A DNA stretch of 64,000 bases from Candidatus Eiseniibacteriota bacterium (GTDB lineage Bacteria > Eisenbacteria > RBG-16-71-46 > CAIMUX01 > VGJL01). The DNA lies in NCBI GenBank assembly GCA_041946735.1, contig JBHGAY010000024.1, positions 14,715 to 78,714 of the forward strand, in the 5' to 3' direction. Below, piece after piece: positions 1 to 7,353 of the stretch (position 1 is its first letter; each line of letters starts with the position of its first letter). The translations under genes were made by a program, and so were the position numbers. Below the pieces are notes generated by a model. It searched no databases, was not told the origin of the DNA, and was given only the letters and a program-made list of their open reading frames with translations.

Positions 1-608
1 TCGACGATGATCGCCGCCAGCCGCCCCGGATTGTCGGCGACGATCCGCTCGACCGAGGCGAGGTCGTTGTAGCGGGCGACCGCCGTATCCCGCGCCATGC
101 CCGCCGTCACACCGGGACTGCTCGGATAGCCGAGCGTCGCTGCGCCCGAGCCGGCCTGGATCAGGAAGGAATCGGCGTGGCCGTGATACCCGCCGTCGAA
201 CTTGATCAGGAGATCCTTGCCGGTCACGCCGCGCGCCAGGCGCAGCGCGCTCATCGTCGCCTCGGTGCCGGAACTGACCAGCCGCACGCTCTCGATCGAG
301 GGCACCGCCTCGACGATCGTCTCGGCCATCTCGATCTCCGTGACGGTCGACGCTCCGAAGCTCGTGCCGTCGCGGGCCGCCCGCGTGATCGCCTCCACGA
401 CCGGCTCGGGCGCGTGGCCGAGGATCAACGGCCCCCACGATCCCACGAGGTCCAAGTACTCCCGCCCCTCCTCGTCCCAGACATGCGATCCGGCGCCGCG
501 CCGCAGGAACGGCGGCCCGCCACCGACCGCGCGGAACGCTCGTACCGGCGAGTTGACCCCTCCCGGGATCACCCGCAAGGCGCGCTCGAAGAGCGACGCG
601 TTGCTCAC
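1..608 (-). CDS. hemL: glutamate-1-semialdehyde 2,1-aminomutase, 5' part (runs off left edge)
   Basis: Manual minus-strand translation [29 protein letters not shown]...[15 protein letters not shown]...SGTEATMSA...[14 protein letters not shown] start overlaps the hemB stop (alternative ATG at 617). Confidence 0.93.
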
Positions 609-1576
609 CGCAGCCATCGGGCCGCCTCCTTCGCGAAGTAGGTGAGGATCAGATCCGCTCCGGCGCGGCGGATCGCGGTCAGCGTCTCGAGCGCCGCCGC
701 GCGCCGGTCGATCCAGCCCCGCTCGGCGGCCGCGCACAGCATCGCGTACTCGCCCGATACGTTGTAGGCGGCCACCGGCAGGTCGAACTCGCTGCGCACG
801 CGCAGGATCACGTCGAGATAGGCAAGCGCCGGCTTCACCATCACGATGTCGGCCCCTTCCTCGACGTCGAGCGCGACCTCGCGCAGCGCCTCGCGCGCGT
901 TCGCCGGATCCATCTGGTATCCCTTCCGGTCGCCCGAACGCGGCGTCGATTCGGCCGCTTCCCGAAACGGACCGTAATAGGCGCTCGCATACTTGGCGGC
1001 GTAGGAGCAGATCGCCGTCTGCTCGAAACCCGCCTCGTCGAGCGCGGAGCGGATCGCGCCGACCCGTCCGTCCATCATGTCGGACGGAGCGACCACGTCG
1101 GCGCCGGCGCGCGCATACGCGAGGGCCGCGCGCGCGAGCAGGTCGAGCGTCGCGTCGTTGTCGACCGTCCCGTCGCGCAAGACGCCGCAATGTCCGTGGT
1201 CGGTGTACTCGCAGAGGCAGACGTCCGCCCAGATCGAAAGCCCCGGCAGCGACTCGCGCAGCGCGCGGATCGCCCGCGGCACGATCCCCTCGTCGTCGTA
1301 GCCCTCCGTGCCGGTGGCATCCTTGCGCTCCGGAATCCCGAAGAGGATGACCGCCGGGACGCCGGCGGCCTGCGCCTCGCTGCACTCCTCGACGAGACGG
1401 TCGATCGAGAGCCGCTCGACCCCCGGCATCGAGGAGACCGGCTCGCGGAGCCCGCTCCCATGCCTCACGAACAACGGCAGGATCAGATCGTCGACCGAGA
1501 GACGCGTCTCGCGGACCATTCGCCGTATCGTCTCGTTGCGCCGCAAGCGCCGGGGGCGCTCGGCCGGAAAGCTCAT
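605..1576 (-). CDS. hemB: porphobilinogen synthase (ALA dehydratase)
   Basis: [20 protein letters not shown]n motif, [20 protein letters not shown]. Confidence 0.97.
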
Positions 1577-3165
1577 CGCAAACCTCCCTCGATCCGGTCC
1601 CTCGTGATCGGACGGCCGGCACCGGCGGGGGCGGCGCCGCTACCGCCGCCGCCATCGCCGATTGCCTCCCCGGTCGCCTCCCTGCCGCTCGCCGGCTGCG
1701 CGTGACCGAGCAGCGCACGCTCGACCGCCTCCGCCATCCCTTCGTTCGAAGCCTCCCGCGCCTCCGCGTCCGGAGCCATGCCGAGCGAGCGCATCGCGGC
1801 CGCCGTCGTCGGACCGATCGCCACGACGCGGGGCCGCGGAGCGGGCGCTTCCCGCCACGCGCGGCCGAGCAGCGCCTCGAACGCGCGCGCCCCCGACGGG
1901 CTCGTCAGGCAGATCGCGTCGATCCTGCCCGCGAGGAGATCCGCCTCGATCGCTTCGAACGCGACGCCGCCGGAGAGCTCCGTGCGGTACGCGACGACCT
2001 CCGTCACCTCGACGCCGGCCGCGCGCAACCGCGCCGGCAACTCGGGCTGCGCCTGCTCGGCCCGCGGCAGGAGCGCGCGGAGTCCCGCAGGCCGATCGAC
2101 TCGCGCGAGCAGCGCGCCGGCGAGCGCGCCCCCGGTGGCGGTGGCCGCCACGAGATCGCACCGGCCGAAACGGTCACGCGCGCGGGCCGCCGTCGCCTCG
2201 CCCACCGCGCCGATCGCGGGACGATTCCCGGACAGCGGCCGGCCGGCCCCAGCCGGCGCCGCGCCGCCTTCCGTCGCGTCGGCGAACGCATCGACCCCGC
2301 GCGCGCTCGTGAAGAGGACCCAGTCGTACGAGGCCGCCCGGGCCGCAGCCTCCTCGAGCGGACGTCGATCCCGCGGGGGCTGCGTCACGAGCAGGGGCAG
2401 GTGGAGCGCAACTCCCCCGCGCCGCTCGATCGCAGCCGCCAGGCCGTCCCCCTCCTCGCGCGTCACGAGAATCCGCGCTCCCCGCAGCGTTCCGGCGATC
2501 CCGCTCCCCGCCGCGGCGCCTCCTGCCCCGAGGCCGCGCCACACGAAGTCGAAGAGCTGCTCGGGCTCCGCGTTGCCGCGTTGCGCGGCCTTCCCCTCGG
2601 CGAGACACCGCAGCGCCGCTCCCTCCAGCGCGCCGAGCACCAGATCGGTCGCCATCTCGACCGGCATCGCGCGCACGCTTCCTTCCGCAAGCCCTCGCTG
2701 CAGCTCTTCGCGCAGCAGGGAGCGGAGCCGGTCCCATCGGGGCGCCGCGCCGCCCTCCACCGCGCTGCCGATCGGGCAGGCCTCCTCCTTGCGCATCATG
2801 CGGAAGAAGTTCGGGTAGCGGAGCAGGAACAGGAGGACGTGGACGAGGATCTTCCTCAAGCGGAGCTTCGAGCTCTCCTCCCCCTCGAACGCCGCGCGCA
2901 ATCCCTCCATCAGGTGATCCATGCGCGAGTCGAGGATCGAGAGGTAGAGGTTCTCCTTCGAGGGGAAGTACAGGTAGAGCGTCCCCTTCGCCACCCCGGC
3001 GCGTTCCGCGAGCTCTTCCATCCGGACCTGGGAAAGCTCGCGCCCGGCGAAGAGCCCCGCCGCCGCTTCGAGGATCTCCTCGCGCCGGCTCCGGCCTCCG
3101 CCGCCGGCAGCGCCGTTGCCGTTCGCGCTCCTCGCGCGCCCGCCTCCCGCCTCCGCCGCCATCAC
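1573..3165 (-). CDS. hemD: fusion: N-terminal TetR/AcrR regulator + C-terminal uroporphyrinogen-III synthase (HemD)
   Basis: Tet[13 protein letters not shown]...[25 protein letters not shown]; HemD motifs [42 protein letters not shown]; sits between hemC and hemB. Confidence 0.9.
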
Positions 3166-4202
3166 GGCTCCCCCGGCTGCGCCGCTCCGCGCGCCCGCGC
3201 CTCCGCGAGAAGCTCCTTCGCCCCGGAGGCGAGAAGCTCGGCGGCCAGCGCGACGCCGGTCGCCTCGGCCTCCGCGATCGTCCCCTCGCGCGCGCCTCGA
3301 AGCAGCTTCCGCCCGTCGGGATCGGAGACCATCGCCTCCAGCCGCAGCCGCGGCCCTTGCCCCTGCCCCTTCCCCTGCCCCTGCCCCTGCGGATCTTGCG
3401 GGACGATCCGCGCCAGCGCCCCCACCGGAACCTGGCAGCCTCCCCCCAGCGCGTGCAGGAAGGCTCGCTCCGCCGTCACCGTCGCCCGCGTCACGGGATC
3501 CTCCAGGCGCGCGAGAAGCGTCGCCGCCCAGCCGTCCGCCTCGCGGATCTCGACGCCCAGCGCCCCCTGCGCCGGCGCCGGCAGCAGCAGGGAGGCCGGC
3601 AGGACTTCCGTCACGTGACGAAGCAGGCCGAGCCGCGCAAGACCGGCGTGCGCGAGGACCACCGCGTCCAGCTCGCCCCCGAGCGCCTTCTCGAGTCGCG
3701 TGGGGACGTTGCCGCGCAGCGGCAGGATCTGCAGATCGCCGCGCGCGTGCAGCAGCTGCGCCCGCCGCCGCAGGCTCGAGGTCCCGACCCGCGCCCCCTG
3801 CCGCAGGTCCGCGAAGCTCGACGCCCCGCTCGCGACGAGGACGTCGGCCGGCTCTTCCCGCGACAGGATCCCGCCGAGCGCGAGCCCGCCGGGCAGCTCG
3901 GTCGGAAGGTCCTTCAGGCTGTGCACGGCCAGGTCGATCGAGCCGGCGAGCAGAGCGCGCTCGATCTCCTCCGTGAACAGTCCCTTGCCACCGATCTCGG
4001 CGATTGGCTGGTTGAGGGCTCGATCCCCGCGGGTCGAGAGGATCTCGATCCTCACCTGGAGATCCGGCTCCAGCTCGCGCAGTCGCGCCGCGACGTGCTC
4101 CGCCTGCCAGCGCGCGAGCGCGGATCCGCGCGAGCCGATCGTGAGCTGCCGGCCGGCGCCGGGAGCAGGACCGCGCGCGCCCGCGTCAGCCGGCGTTTCC
4201 AT
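3162..4202 (-). CDS. hemC: porphobilinogen deaminase
   Basis: IGSRGSALARWQA, GGKGLFTEEIE, VHSLKDLP, GTSSLRR, RGNVPTRL, GGGCQVP. Confidence 0.97.
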   Translation of the reverse strand: METPADAGARGPAPGAGRQLTIGSRGSALARWQAEHVAARLRELEPDLQVRIEILSTRGDRALNQPIAEIGGKGLFTEEIERALLAGSIDLAVHSLKDLPTELPGGLALGGILSREEPADVLVASGASSFADLRQGARVGTSSLRRRAQLLHARGDLQILPLRGNVPTRLEKALGGELDAVVLAHAGLARLGLLRHVTEVLPASLLLPAPAQGALGVEIREADGWAATLLARLEDPVTRATVTAERAFLHALGGGCQVPVGALARIVPQDPQGQGQGKGQGQGPRLRLEAMVSDPDGRKLLRGAREGTIAEAEATGVALAAELLASGAKELLAEARARGAAQPGEP

Positions 4203-5466
4203 CGTGCCCTCCCAGTCCGAAGAGATGGCGGATCGTTTCGAGCGGCGCGAATCCGTCCGGACCGAGCCGCTGATATCCCCGGATCCGCACGCTCGGCTCG
4301 TGCAAGAGCTTGTTGACGATTCCGCGCGTGAGCGCGTCGAGCTGCTCGCGATCCTTCTCGCAGAACTTCCTGCCGAACCGTTCGACCTCCTGCGCCCGCA
4401 CCTCCTCGAAACGATCGCGAAGCGCCTTCAAGATCGGCGCCGCCCCGAGCGACTCGTACCAGCGCAGATACTGCTCGGTCTCATGGCGGATGATGCTCTC
4501 GACCTTCGGGATCTCCTTCGCGCGCCGCTCCAGGTTCTTCTGCACGAGGTCCTGCAGCGAGTCGACGTCGTAGAGAAACACGTTCGGCAGATCGCGCACG
4601 GCCGGCTCGACGTCGCGCGGCACGGCGATGTCGAGGATCAAGAGCGGTCGATTGCCGCGGGCGGCGAGCGCGCGCTTCACCGTCTCGTAGCGGACGATCG
4701 GGACGGGAGAAGCGGTGGCGCTGACGACGATGCTCGCGATCGTGAGCGCCCCCTCCAGCTCGGCGAAGGGAATCGCCCGGCCGCCCAGCATCCCGGCGAG
4801 CGAGGCCGCATGCTCCGGCGTGCGATTGGTCACGAGAAGCTCGCCGATCCCCTGGTCGCACAGGTGCCGGGCGGCAAGCGCCCCGGTCTCTCCCGAGCCG
4901 ATCAGCAGCGCCGTCTGCTGGCCCATGTCGGAGAAGATCCGCGAGGCGAGGGCGACGGCGGCGAAGCTCACCGACACCGCCCCGGACCCGATCTCCGTCT
5001 CGGTCCGCACCCGCTTGCCGACCCGGAAGGCGGCCTCGAGGAGGCGATGGAACAGCGGCCCGGCCGTCCCCGCGCGCCGCGCGATCTCGAACGCCTCGTG
5101 GACCTGTCCCAGGATCTGCACCTCTCCGACGACCATCGAGTCGATCGACGACGCCACCCGGAAGAGATGGCCGACCATCGACTCCCCGCAATAGCGGTAG
5201 AGGCTGTCCGCGTGCGCCGCGAGGTCCACGCCGCGCTTCTGCTGGACGAGCGCGCGGAAGTGCCGCTCGAGCGGCTCGCTCCCCTCGGCCAACGCGTACA
5301 TCTCGGTTCGGTTGCAGGTGGAGAGGAGCATCCGCTCGAAGATCGGCTCTCGATCGCCGAGCGGAACGCGCAGCGTCTCCTCCGCCTCGGCCGGAGTGAA
5401 GGCGACACGCTCCCGCAGCTCGATCCCGGCGGTGCGATGGTTCAGGCCGACGACGATGAGCTCCAT
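4186..5466 (-). CDS. hemA: glutamyl-tRNA reductase
   Basis: Start MELIVVGLNHRTA; LSTCNRTE, VVGEVQILGQV, DIAVPRDV. Confidence 0.96.
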   Translation of the reverse strand: MELIVVGLNHRTAGIELRERVAFTPAEAEETLRVPLGDREPIFERMLLSTCNRTEMYALAEGSEPLERHFRALVQQKRGVDLAAHADSLYRYCGESMVGHLFRVASSIDSMVVGEVQILGQVHEAFEIARRAGTAGPLFHRLLEAAFRVGKRVRTETEIGSGAVSVSFAAVALASRIFSDMGQQTALLIGSGETGALAARHLCDQGIGELLVTNRTPEHAASLAGMLGGRAIPFAELEGALTIASIVVSATASPVPIVRYETVKRALAARGNRPLLILDIAVPRDVEPAVRDLPNVFLYDVDSLQDLVQKNLERRAKEIPKVESIIRHETEQYLRWYESLGAAPILKALRDRFEEVRAQEVERFGRKFCEKDREQLDALTRGIVNKLLHEPSVRIRGYQRLGPDGFAPLETIRHLFGLGGHDGNAG

Positions 5467-6293
5467 GCCGGTCCCGCGAAGTGGTGGAAGCTGTGAAGGA
5501 ATGCCCCGACGAGGAGAAGCGCGATCCCCATCAGGAGGAATCCGGAGATCGACAGGTAGATCGCGCGCTTCCCTCGCCATCCCAGCCGGTAGTACGCCAG
5601 CACGCATGCCAGATAGATGCACCAGACGGTGACGGTGAGCAGGAACATCGGATCGCGCGTGAAGCCGTGCACCAGGCGACTCGCCCAGAAGATCCCCGCC
5701 ACGATCGCGACGGTCAGCGACGCGAGGCCGAGCACCGCCGCGCGGATGTTCATCCGCCCGAGGACGTCGAGCGGCGGGAGCCTCCGGTAGACGAGGCCGA
5801 AGCGCGAGGCCTTCAGCTCGTGATAGAGCAGGAGGAACAGGAAGCCGTAGATCGCCGAGACGGCGAACGCCGCATAGCCGAGGATCGCGAAGCCGGTATG
5901 CAGTCCGAACCACGGCAGCCGCAGCAGCTCCGGCACCTCCGCATCGAGCGCGATCCGCCCCGAGGAGGCGAACTGCAACAGGGTCGAGAACGCGAGCAGG
6001 AAGAAGCCGGTCGAGAGGTTCTTCGTGCGCGTCTCCACGTAGAAGTATGCGACCGCCGTAGCGAAGGCGATCACCGAGAGGAACTCCGGCGCGTTGGCGA
6101 GCGGCATGCGCCGGTGCGCGAGCACGAACGAGACGAGATAGAGGAGGTGGACCGAGAGCGTTGCCATCAGCGCAGGACGCGCCATGCGCCCGATACGGTC
6201 CCCCCGGCCGAAGAAGACGTATCCATAAAGGAGGAAGGTCGCCACGTAGAGCGTGGGGACCGCGCAGCGAAGGACGGCGAGCAGAGTGCTCAT
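5442..6293 (-). CDS. ccsA: cytochrome c biogenesis CcsA / HemX-like membrane protein
   Basis: About 8 hydrophobic segments, conserved His (LHTGF), GIFWA...RDP and GWRGKRA motifs; typical position upstream of hemA. Confidence 0.85.
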   Translation of the reverse strand: MSTLLAVLRCAVPTLYVATFLLYGYVFFGRGDRIGRMARPALMATLSVHLLYLVSFVLAHRRMPLANAPEFLSVIAFATAVAYFYVETRTKNLSTGFFLLAFSTLLQFASSGRIALDAEVPELLRLPWFGLHTGFAILGYAAFAVSAIYGFLFLLLYHELKASRFGLVYRRLPPLDVLGRMNIRAAVLGLASLTVAIVAGIFWASRLVHGFTRDPMFLLTVTVWCIYLACVLAYYRLGWRGKRAIYLSISGFLLMGIALLLVGAFLHSFHHFAGPAWSSSSSA

Positions 6294-6376: not shown

Positions 6377-6396
6377 TGCACTGACCGGTCAGTTCA
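6377..6396. promoter_or_regulatory. palindromic operator, probably TetR-type, at the start of the hem operon
   Basis: TGCACTGACCGGTCAGTTCA with a perfect 14-bp core ACTGACCGGTCAGT, immediately downstream of the predicted -10. Confidence 0.65.
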
Positions 6397-6402
6397 TCGC
6401 GA

Positions 6403-6432
6403 ATCGTAACGAGACCGTTCTGCGGGGGTCAA
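6403..6432 (-). promoter_or_regulatory. sigma70-like promoter of the ccsA-hem operon
   Basis: Minus strand TTGACC-18 bp-TACGAT in an AT-richer patch about 110 bp upstream of ccsA. Confidence 0.6.
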
Positions 6433-6603
6433 TGACCATTGGGTAATCGTTCTAACGTTGCGAGAAAGAGAATCTGGTGGGTTGGCCCGGCGGCCGGGAG
6501 GGTACGACCTCCCGTGAGCCCGCGCCTGCGCGGCGCGGCCCCTCGCGGGATCTGGCTCGACTTTCGCGATTTGCGGACCTGCGATCCGGATGTTCCGGAG
6601 GAC

Positions 6604-7353
6604 CTAGAAGGGCCTCTCCTCCTTGTCGAGGAACGCCTTCACCAGCTCGCTGAAGTCCTCGGCACCGCTGCTGCCGGGGGCGGTCACCTGGATCGGCGCA
6701 TGGAATCCGCCCGCCTCGGCGAGCCGCGCGTTCTCACGGATCGGCGGCAAGACGGAGGCGCCGTACACCTCGCGGAGCGTCGCCTCTACCTTCCCGCTGA
6801 GCCGTGTGCGCACCGTCCGGTTAGGGACGATTCCGGCAATCCGCAGGCGAGGATTGCGGTGCCTCTGCACCTGCTCCACGACCTCGATCAGAAGCCCGAG
6901 GATCTGGAGGTCCAGTTCGCGGGTCGTGACCGGCACGATGACGCCGTCGACCGACGAAAGGCTGGCGACGAGGAGCGATCCCCAGGTCGGCGGCGTGTCG
7001 ATCAGGACGTAGTCGATCTCGGGGTCGACCTGCCCCACGAGATTCGCAAGCCGCTCCCGCGTCGGATGCGCGCCGTTGTCGAACGGGGCGAGCATCCGGT
7101 TCCCCGGGGCGATCGTGAGGCCGGTGACCAGGGTGCTGGTCAGAACGTCGGCCAGCCGCTTCTCGCCGGCGAGGCTGTCCGCCAGGTTGCCGTTACAGGA
7201 CCGGGGAAGCAGATGGAAGCTGCTCGATCCCTGCGGATCGAGGTCGAAGAGCACGACGTTGCGTCCAGCCAGGGCCAGCCCGGCCGCGAGATTGACGGCG
7301 ATCGTGGTCTTGCCCGATCCGCCCTTGATGTTGGCGATCGCGTACGATCTCAT
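6604..7353 (-). CDS. parA: ParA/Soj family ATPase
   Basis: NIKGGSGKTT deviant Walker A, DLDPQG, IDTPP. Confidence 0.9.
   Translation of the reverse strand: MRSYAIANIKGGSGKTTIAVNLAAGLALAGRNVVLFDLDPQGSSSFHLLPRSCNGNLADSLAGEKRLADVLTSTLVTGLTIAPGNRMLAPFDNGAHPTRERLANLVGQVDPEIDYVLIDTPPTWGSLLVASLSSVDGVIVPVTTRELDLQILGLLIEVVEQVQRHRNPRLRIAGIVPNRTVRTRLSGKVEATLREVYGASVLPPIRENARLAEAGGFHAPIQVTAPGSSGAEDFSELVKAFLDKEERPF

Follow-up and report, generated by a model that had tools for sequence, protein, structure and literature searches.

Among the DNA-binding trigger enzymes described so far are the biotin ligase and repressor BirA, NadR, PutA, and the archaeal riboflavin kinase and regulator RbkR, in which a bare helix-turn-helix (HTH), winged HTH or ribbon-helix-helix module is joined to an enzyme that is also the sensor (PMC5397151). 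Here we analyze a candidate for such a protein in haem biosynthesis. The gene, tetR::hemD, lies at 1573..3165 on the reverse strand (-) of a 64,000-nucleotide stretch of a Candidatus Eiseniibacteriota genome (GCA_041946735.1, contig JBHGAY010000024.1, positions 14,715 to 78,714), which we call the window, and it encodes a TetR-type transcription factor followed by HemD, the uroporphyrinogen-III synthase. As in BirA, NadR, PutA and RbkR, a DNA-binding module and a pathway enzyme are in one polypeptide, the pathway is that of a cofactor, and control of the protein's own operon is predicted: the putative operator is found only at the promoter of a ten-gene haem cluster. Unlike in those proteins, the DNA-binding part is a complete one-component TetR with a ligand-type core of its own, and neither HemD nor the haem pathway is among the trigger-enzyme cases listed in that account (PMC5397151).

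A second precedent is NnaR, an actinobacterial regulator of nitrate and nitrite assimilation with an N-terminal HemD-like domain and a C-terminal OmpR-type winged helix, which acts as a transcription factor (PMC6277429). NnaR and the fusion both hold a HEM4-type and a DNA-binding domain in one protein, but the fusion has them in the reversed order (TetR, then HemD), takes its DNA-binding domain from another family, and has no second HEM4 match beside it in the genome. While the HemD domain of NnaR is reported to be inactive alongside a paralogue, and its targets are nitrogen-assimilation genes, the fusion sits in a hem operon (PMC6277429). The original prediction for this locus, which was made from the sequence alone, held that no characterized example was known; full-text literature searches likewise found no paper describing a TetR-HemD fusion, but the partial precedent of NnaR had been missed.

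On the TetR side, the closest described systems are HrtR of Lactococcus, FhtR of Enterococcus and HatR of C. difficile, all of them stand-alone haem-sensing TetRs that regulate genes for the efflux or detoxification of haem and come off the DNA in response to haem. The fusion shares with them the TetR family, the link to haem, and a palindromic (here predicted) operator at the regulated promoter. It differs in that its neighbors and proposed targets are biosynthetic genes, and in a TetR core that has no invariant His or Cys. On the HemD side, fusions to an operon neighbor are familiar in the form of CobA-HemD, HemC-HemD and HemD-HemX, but there HemD is joined to a membrane protein or to an enzyme of a neighboring step, and here to a transcription factor. 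For HemD, a systematic survey of fusions gives only CobA-HemD and HemC-HemD among the cases it reports (PMC4921024).

The fusion is a single conserved gene

Read from its GTG start, tetR::hemD is one open reading frame (ORF) of 530 aa, or of 529 aa if translation begins at an ATG one codon later. Pfam assigns ORF residues 31-76 to TetR_N (E-value 3.2e-15, 56 bits, for a cut-off of 24) and residues 242-478 to HEM4 (profile positions 3-230 of 231, E-value 2.3e-49, 168 bits, for a cut-off of 27.5), with a below-threshold match to TetR_C_41 at residues 146-193. The HemD and TetR equivalogs of NCBIfam are matched only below threshold, so the fusion protein belongs to no named equivalog. On the DNA, and always on the reverse strand, the TetR module (HTH plus helical ligand and dimerization core, residues ~26-215) takes up 2521..3090, a Gly/Ala-rich linker (residues ~216-228), in frame throughout and with no stop, takes up 2482..2520, the HemD domain (residues ~229-486) takes up 1708..2481, and a low-complexity C-terminal tail of ~44 aa, which most homologues do not have, takes up 1576..1707. 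The AlphaFold2 (AF2) model of the protein has a mean predicted local distance difference test score (pLDDT) of 84.1 and a predicted template modeling score (pTM) of 0.60; both domains are confident and their relative orientation is not fixed by the model, with pLDDT below 50 in the linker (215-223) and in the tail (492-529). A complex prediction that pairs the TetR half (23-222) with the HemD half (226-490) scores 0.00 against a mark of 0.32, and we count it neither way.

The TetR half is complete. AF2 places nine helices in it (26-40, 48-55, 59-65, 69-91, 98-115, 117-128, 140-160, 168-188 and 198-211), for the most part at a pLDDT of more than 90, so that the full ligand-type core of helices 4-9 is retained next to the HTH. 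Foldseek gives target-normalized template modeling (TM) scores of 0.80 to PfmR (3vpr) and 0.79 to FasR (6o6p), and the nearest sequences in the PDB are TetRs of the FadR/YsiA type (E-value ~1e-30). In the low-confidence loop between helices 6 and 7 (window 2740-2790 (-), residues ~129-139) there is a Cys-Pro dipeptide that resembles a haem regulatory motif. We rejected it as a general haem-sensing feature, as among the aligned fusions it is present only in P0001-P0005.

The DNA of the window is 70-80% GC, a composition in which chance alone produces long ORFs in all frames. This ORF is more than such a chance product because two significant domain matches fall in one frame and because it aligns with 34 full-length homologues. 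By word-indexed search there are 17 clusters (at 90% identity) that carry both PF00440 and PF02602 and are 31-51% identical to the query, and in an exhaustive HMMER search over 1.84 billion representatives (at 50% identity) at least 22 of the best 150 proteins match residues ~25-485 in one stretch. The 34 full-length fusions that we aligned fall into three groups: G1, the clade of the window (44-50% identity to the window protein), the GC-rich G2 (31-38%), and the AT-rich G3 (23-26%). The HTH motif KGT.Y..F.SK is invariant in all 34, as are G321, T324, Y392, S421, G450 and T453 of the HemD domain (in the numbering of P0001). The linker, on the other hand, varies from ~5 residues, in G2 and in the Ignavibacteria-type fusions, to ~70 in some members of the window's own clade. 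When we compare 41 genomes (the window's own and 40 relatives), the uninterrupted full-length fusion is present in six of them, the window's own G000 as well as G001, G003, G004, G023 and G027. The genome_contigs set holds 14 further fusion loci, which by their titles belong to 12 Ignavibacteria-type metagenome-assembled genomes, one Bacteroidetes and one uncultured bacterium, and there are many more on metagenome contigs. In the source databases these proteins are already held, labeled either "TetR family regulator" or "uroporphyrinogen-III synthase"; under the first label alone, a genome with the fusion looks as if it had no hemD.

One further protein, P0017 (607 aa), has a Response_reg domain, then TetR_C_24, then HEM4, with receiver domain(s) in the place of the TetR HTH. 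Its identity over the stretch from the TetR core through HemD is 47%. With only one cluster, on one contig of 5.7 kb, to represent it, the protein may be a genuine swap of domains or else a chimera.

The gene fits tightly between its neighbors. The junction with hemC reads CCG TGA TGG (cGTGATGg), which makes a 4-bp overlap with the hemC TGA if the GTG is the start, and an overlap of 1 nt if the ATG is; the junction with hemB reads CGATGAGC (cgATGAgc), a 4-bp ATGA overlap. Sequencing data bear on the inner junction only in part. A contig from run X1 covers 1400-3335 with 0 differences, and X1 may be the window's own source. The fragments of the independent run X2 are identical to the window and miss the domain junction at 2482-2523, the fragments of X3 miss the same stretch, and the raw reads of X7 are each a partial fit at 90-99% identity. 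The junction thus rests on homologues, not on independent reads.

We conclude that tetR::hemD is a real, single, conserved gene and not an assembly artefact. Several points of the original prediction are borne out by these results: that one ORF holds a complete TetR, a Gly/Ala linker and a full HemD, and that it fills the hemD slot between hemC and hemB with 4-bp overlaps (on the hemC side, from the GTG). It had also put forward a search for the TetR_N plus HEM4 architecture across genomes, and there the homologues are not always separate genes. A comparison of the junction (2480-2530) with reads, which it had put forward as well, gives agreement in the X1 contig, but the independent fragments do not reach across.

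The HemD half is probably the cell's uroporphyrinogen-III synthase

In the genome of the window (94.8% complete) the HEM4 profile has a single match, the fusion; in each of the five other fusion genomes the fusion is again the sole match. With no other HEM4 match in any of the six genomes, and with a position inside a ten-gene haem cluster, the fusion is probably a working enzyme. The rest of the haem pathway is in the same cluster, which implies that uroporphyrinogen III is needed.

The predicted structure agrees with this. AF2 gives the two-lobe fold of HemD, with target-normalized TM scores of 0.70-0.75 in Foldseek to 3re1, 1jr2 and 4es6, and of 0.72-0.75 when only 3re1 and 1jr2 are counted. 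In an alignment with human UroS (1jr2), the AYRT and GPTT segments of the fusion fall on VYQT and GPTT, that is, on Tyr168 and Thr228 once a 21-residue tag offset is taken into account. These two residues of the human enzyme reportedly matter for activity, according to work by Mathews and colleagues in 2001, and the aligned Tyr and Thr are invariant in 34/34 fusions. Judged by its sequence, then, the HemD half is probably the catalytically active uroporphyrinogen-III synthase of the cell.

As to the wider distribution of HemD, 17 of the 41 genomes have no HEM4 match at all, several of them 97-100% complete, and two of them (G002 and G005) belong to the window's own family. Such relatives may be haem auxotrophs or may have a divergent HemD.

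A candidate operator at the promoter of the haem operon

A perfect 14-bp palindrome, ACTGACCGGTCAGT, at 6381..6394, is our predicted operator. In relatives it extends to the consensus TGAACTGACCGGTCAGTTCA, which corresponds to ~6378-6397. Upstream of the ccsA-like gene, the first of the operon, there is a sigma-70-like promoter at 6403..6432 (-) (TTGACC, 18 nt, TACGAT; 9 of 12 matches; one site versus 0.0 expected in shuffles), and its -10 box ends 9 nt before the palindrome. The palindrome occurs as a single exact copy in the 4.9-Mb genome; allowing up to two mismatches there are five other genomic sites, versus four for the reversed control.

The site is conserved where the fusion is present. 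We find it upstream of the operon in 5/5 related fusion genomes and in the locus L031 (once with C·A changes), in surrounding sequence that has diverged, and in all seven GC-rich fusion loci the best -35/-10 pair, which scores 6-9 of 12, ends 9-11 nt before it. These loci are mutually related, and the counts should not be taken as independent trials. All six fusion genomes have the 13-mer CTGACYRGTCAGT, and in none of them does it occur anywhere but upstream of the hem operon; 9/35 non-fusion genomes have it too, never near their hemD. The only one of those nine that has the full palindrome is G008, and there the site is inside a SurA-like coding ORF.

A weight matrix built from the seven GC-rich sites was applied to 11 Ignavibacteria-type fusion loci (9-13 kb each) and to four non-fusion relatives. 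For six of the 11 Ignavibacteria-type loci the highest-scoring match of the entire locus falls in the 250 nt that precede the ccsA-like gene, and the remaining five have their upstream site at rank 2-8; the motif there reads TGAACTCAcaaGTCAg. In the hem promoters of the four non-fusion relatives scanned the palindrome was not found, and the upstream scores of the matrix are negative. A second operator, looked for in the gap between hemC and the fusion gene of the Ignavibacteria-type loci, has a moderate match in only 2/11.

These patterns suggest that the palindrome is an operator at the promoter of the fusion's own haem operon. The proposal that the protein is an enzyme and regulator of its own operon, with a DNA site within 6377-6396, thereby gains comparative support from a unique and conserved palindrome inside that interval and from matching promoter geometry in 7/7 GC-rich fusion loci.

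A TetR lineage tied to hem operons

How did the two genes come together? In a tree of 98 TetR domains, those of all 34 fusions lie within one set of 42 rows (Shimodaira-Hasegawa-like approximate likelihood ratio test, 99), which also includes seven stand-alone TetRs of 195-222 aa and one truncated fusion. The HemD domains of the fusions, on the other hand, form three separate groups among stand-alone HemDs. One origin for the fusion as a whole would fit the TetR tree, but on the HemD side a single fusion clade is rejected. As the HemD trees fail to unite the fusions, either there was more than one fusion event or base composition has distorted the tree.

A split form of the arrangement is found on a metagenome contig, L139:3164-4590, in the order hemA, hemC, a TetR of 194 aa, then a CobA(TP_methylase)-HemD, with ATGA stop/start overlaps at both the hemC/tetR and the tetR/cobA-hemD junctions. 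This TetR scores 190.6 bits against a hidden Markov model of the fusion TetRs, to be compared with 154-271 for the fusions themselves and a median of 110 for the other 64 rows. The split form indicates that the TetR lineage is tied to hem operons independently of the fusion. The 65 loci of more distant stand-alone TetRs in genome_contigs (L039-L103) have no adjacent hem genes, bar one weak aminotransferase match, a result that bears on these distant TetRs and not on the seven stand-alone TetRs inside the set. On the simplest reading, a TetR gene of the hem operon directly upstream of hemD became fused to hemD, possibly more than once.

Proposed mechanism and alternative explanations

The explanation that we favor, with a probability of about 0.7, is that the fusion is a bifunctional trigger enzyme, which serves as HemD and, as a TetR-type autorepressor, also controls the haem operon. 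The N-terminal TetR half would dimerize and bind the palindrome just downstream of the -10 box of a promoter that would drive the co-directional cluster ccsA-like-hemA-hemC-tetR::hemD-hemB-hemL(-hemE-hemN-hemH-hemY). The predicted operator lies over the transcript start of the haem operon; protein bound there would block transcription initiation or early elongation, and so hold down both its own production and that of the pathway. DNA binding may in turn be tuned by an effector, for which a tetrapyrrole (haem, or a porphyrin or porphyrinogen intermediate) is the most plausible candidate, acting on the ligand core of the TetR or on the HemD domain joined to it. Architecture, conservation, single-copy status, and the operator-like site with its geometry are established at the level of sequence; we infer that the protein binds DNA, represses and is catalytically active, and likewise what its effector is and with which sign it acts.

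A number of points weigh against this explanation. An enzyme is normally far more abundant than the repressor of a single operator, so that repression would be permanent unless the affinity is low or an effector intervenes. In the usual TetR logic the ligand releases the DNA; in a biosynthetic operon, positive feedback would then result if the end product were a classical inducer of this kind, and to avoid it one has to assume a co-repressor mode, or induction by the substrate or a pathway intermediate. The roughly tenfold variation in linker length argues against a rigid coupling of HemD to TetR. The nearest solved relatives are acyl-CoA-binding regulators of the FadR type and not haem sensors, and across the 34 aligned fusions the TetR core has no invariant His or Cys. 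Some of the promoter predictions are weak (6-7 of 12 matches), and the Ignavibacteria motif is degenerate, at 2-19 bits. Finally, the approximately unbiased (AU) test rejects a single fusion clade in the HemD tree of 67 rows (p 0.00014), for a group that had already been seen on an earlier tree and with AT-rich rows that deviate in composition.

An alternative of which we are less persuaded, but which we take to be a real possibility, is that the HemD domain is itself the sensor. Occupancy of its cleft by hydroxymethylbilane or uroporphyrinogen III would shift the two lobes on the TetR dimer and so control DNA binding, and the TetR core would mainly dimerize, as in the logic of BirA, NadR, PutA and RbkR; in the DNA-binding trigger enzymes described, it is indeed the enzyme domain that senses (PMC5397151). 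Linkers of only ~5 residues in G2 and in the Ignavibacteria-type fusions would suit such coupling, and a fusion that seems to have formed repeatedly, or to have been kept, in at least three lineages suggests an advantage of linkage beyond co-expression. But the TetR module has kept a full ligand-type core (helices 4-9), linkers reach ~70 residues in some of the window's clade, and with confident domains and a pTM of 0.60 the model leaves the mutual orientation unfixed. A more specific form, which we regard as doubtful, makes the fusion a direct sensor of porphyrinogen flux, in which the state of the HemD site, occupied by or turning over hydroxymethylbilane or uroporphyrinogen III, would control the TetR dimer at its single operator; a TetR gene of the hem operon, just upstream of hemD, would then have entered the fusion in several phyla independently. 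Unprocessed hydroxymethylbilane cyclizes to the useless isomer I. If this form were true, the whole pathway would be tuned to the flux through its most error-prone step.

It is also unlikely, in our judgment, that the fusion is neutral, a loss of a stop codon having joined two adjacent coupled genes, with a TetR that acts as if it were separate, an effector unrelated to HemD, and nothing gained except 1:1 stoichiometry. The sole difference between this and the trigger-enzyme explanation is whether the linkage matters. The split form on L139, where tetR and cobA-hemD overlap by ATGA, speaks for it, and variable linkers fit two independent modules; yet the fusion persists at 23-50% identity over at least three deep groups, by the HemD trees formed or retained several times, which is beyond the usual neutral accident. 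We find it improbable that the HemD domain is a dead sensor and the protein a regulator only, with uroporphyrinogen III coming from an unrecognized enzyme or forming non-enzymatically. NnaR is the model for this, since its HemD domain is reported to be without HemD activity in Streptomyces, where a separate paralogue catalyzes (PMC6277429). Here, however, none of the six fusion genomes has a second HEM4 match, the fusion fills the hemC-hemB slot that in nine fetched non-fusion relatives holds a stand-alone hemD, the HEM4 match is full-length at 168 bits, and the residues aligned to Tyr168 and Thr228 are invariant. Almost no weight is left for an artefact of assembly or gene calling, in which a missed stop or frameshift would join two genes. 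High-GC DNA does yield long spurious ORFs, and independent reads do miss the junction, but the same uninterrupted layout recurs in the five other related genomes (no stops), in the 14 genome_contigs loci, on many metagenome contigs and in the 34 aligned proteins.

The haem operon around the fusion

The operon opens with a CcsA/HemX-like membrane protein (5442..6293 (-); Cytochrom_C_asm, Pfam E-value 4e-21), which is syntenic in all fusion loci. It is followed by hemA for glutamyl-tRNA reductase (4186..5466 (-); GlutR_N, Shikimate_DH and GlutR_dimer). The longest hemA ORF, 4186-5913 (-), extends 150 codons into the ccsA-like gene, and from the translation the true start is probably the ATG at 5466, which makes a 25-nt overlap with the ccsA-like stop. 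Then come hemC for porphobilinogen deaminase (3162..4202 (-); Porphobil_deam and Porphobil_deamC), the fusion gene, hemB for ALA (5-aminolevulinic acid) dehydratase (605..1576 (-); ALAD, E-value 5e-152), and the 5' part of hemL (1..602 (-)). Beyond the window, past hemL, the contig goes on with hemE, a HemN-like radical-SAM gene, ferrochelatase (hemH) and a HemY-like amine oxidase, so that the haem cluster is complete with ten co-directional genes. The TP_methylase family has its sole match in the window's genome away from the hem cluster, and it matches in all 14 control genomes as well. Within hemC we observe a low-complexity insertion, QGQGQGKGQGQG, inside or just before the C-terminal domain.

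The order is largely shared. The five other fusion genomes have the order of the window (ccsA-like, hemA, hemC, fusion, hemB, hemL), and in genome_contigs hemC precedes the fusion in 13 of the 14 loci, 12 of which also have the ccsA-like gene and hemA before hemC; hemC is likewise upstream of the fusion in many metagenome contigs. In the nine non-fusion relatives that were fetched a stand-alone HemD, aligning to fusion residues ~215-485 only, lies between hemC and hemB, and four of the nine retain the full order from the ccsA-like gene to hemL. The Bacillus subtilis-type operon is hemAXCDBL. The cluster described here has the same co-directional gene set, including the CcsA-family HemX-like membrane protein, but in the order X-A-C-D-B-L, with a TetR module on the D gene, and it runs on to hemE, hemN, hemH and hemY.

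Some loci are laid out more loosely. Those of the Ignavibacteria type (L025-L037) mostly have ~600-850 nt between hemC and the fusion gene, with hemB several kb further on (5-6 kb in two loci) or beyond the fetched stretch, as opposed to the compact GC-rich operon. Directly upstream of the hem promoter of the window there is a gene for a ParA/MinD-type ATPase, 6604-7353 (-), and three of the five related fusion genomes, G001, G003 and G004, show the same synteny; its transcription may end at the GC-rich hairpins at 6497-6545.

Outlook

Transcriptional control of bacterial haem synthesis has been studied in few model groups, and it is usually exerted by iron, oxygen or peroxide regulators, not by the pathway itself. 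The fusion offers a compact and testable system in poorly studied phyla (the lineage labeled Candidatus Eisenbacteria, and the Ignavibacteria), and recognizing it corrects the database annotation of proteins now held under partial names. If both jobs of the protein are true, the short list of DNA-binding trigger enzymes would gain a cofactor pathway and a new architecture, that of a whole TetR plus an enzyme. Should the effector be a tetrapyrrole, the protein and its site would be a tetrapyrrole-responsive repressor/operator pair, and possibly a biosensor. For these bacteria, it may be that a complete cluster of ten haem genes is under the control of a single protein with one 14-bp site at one promoter.

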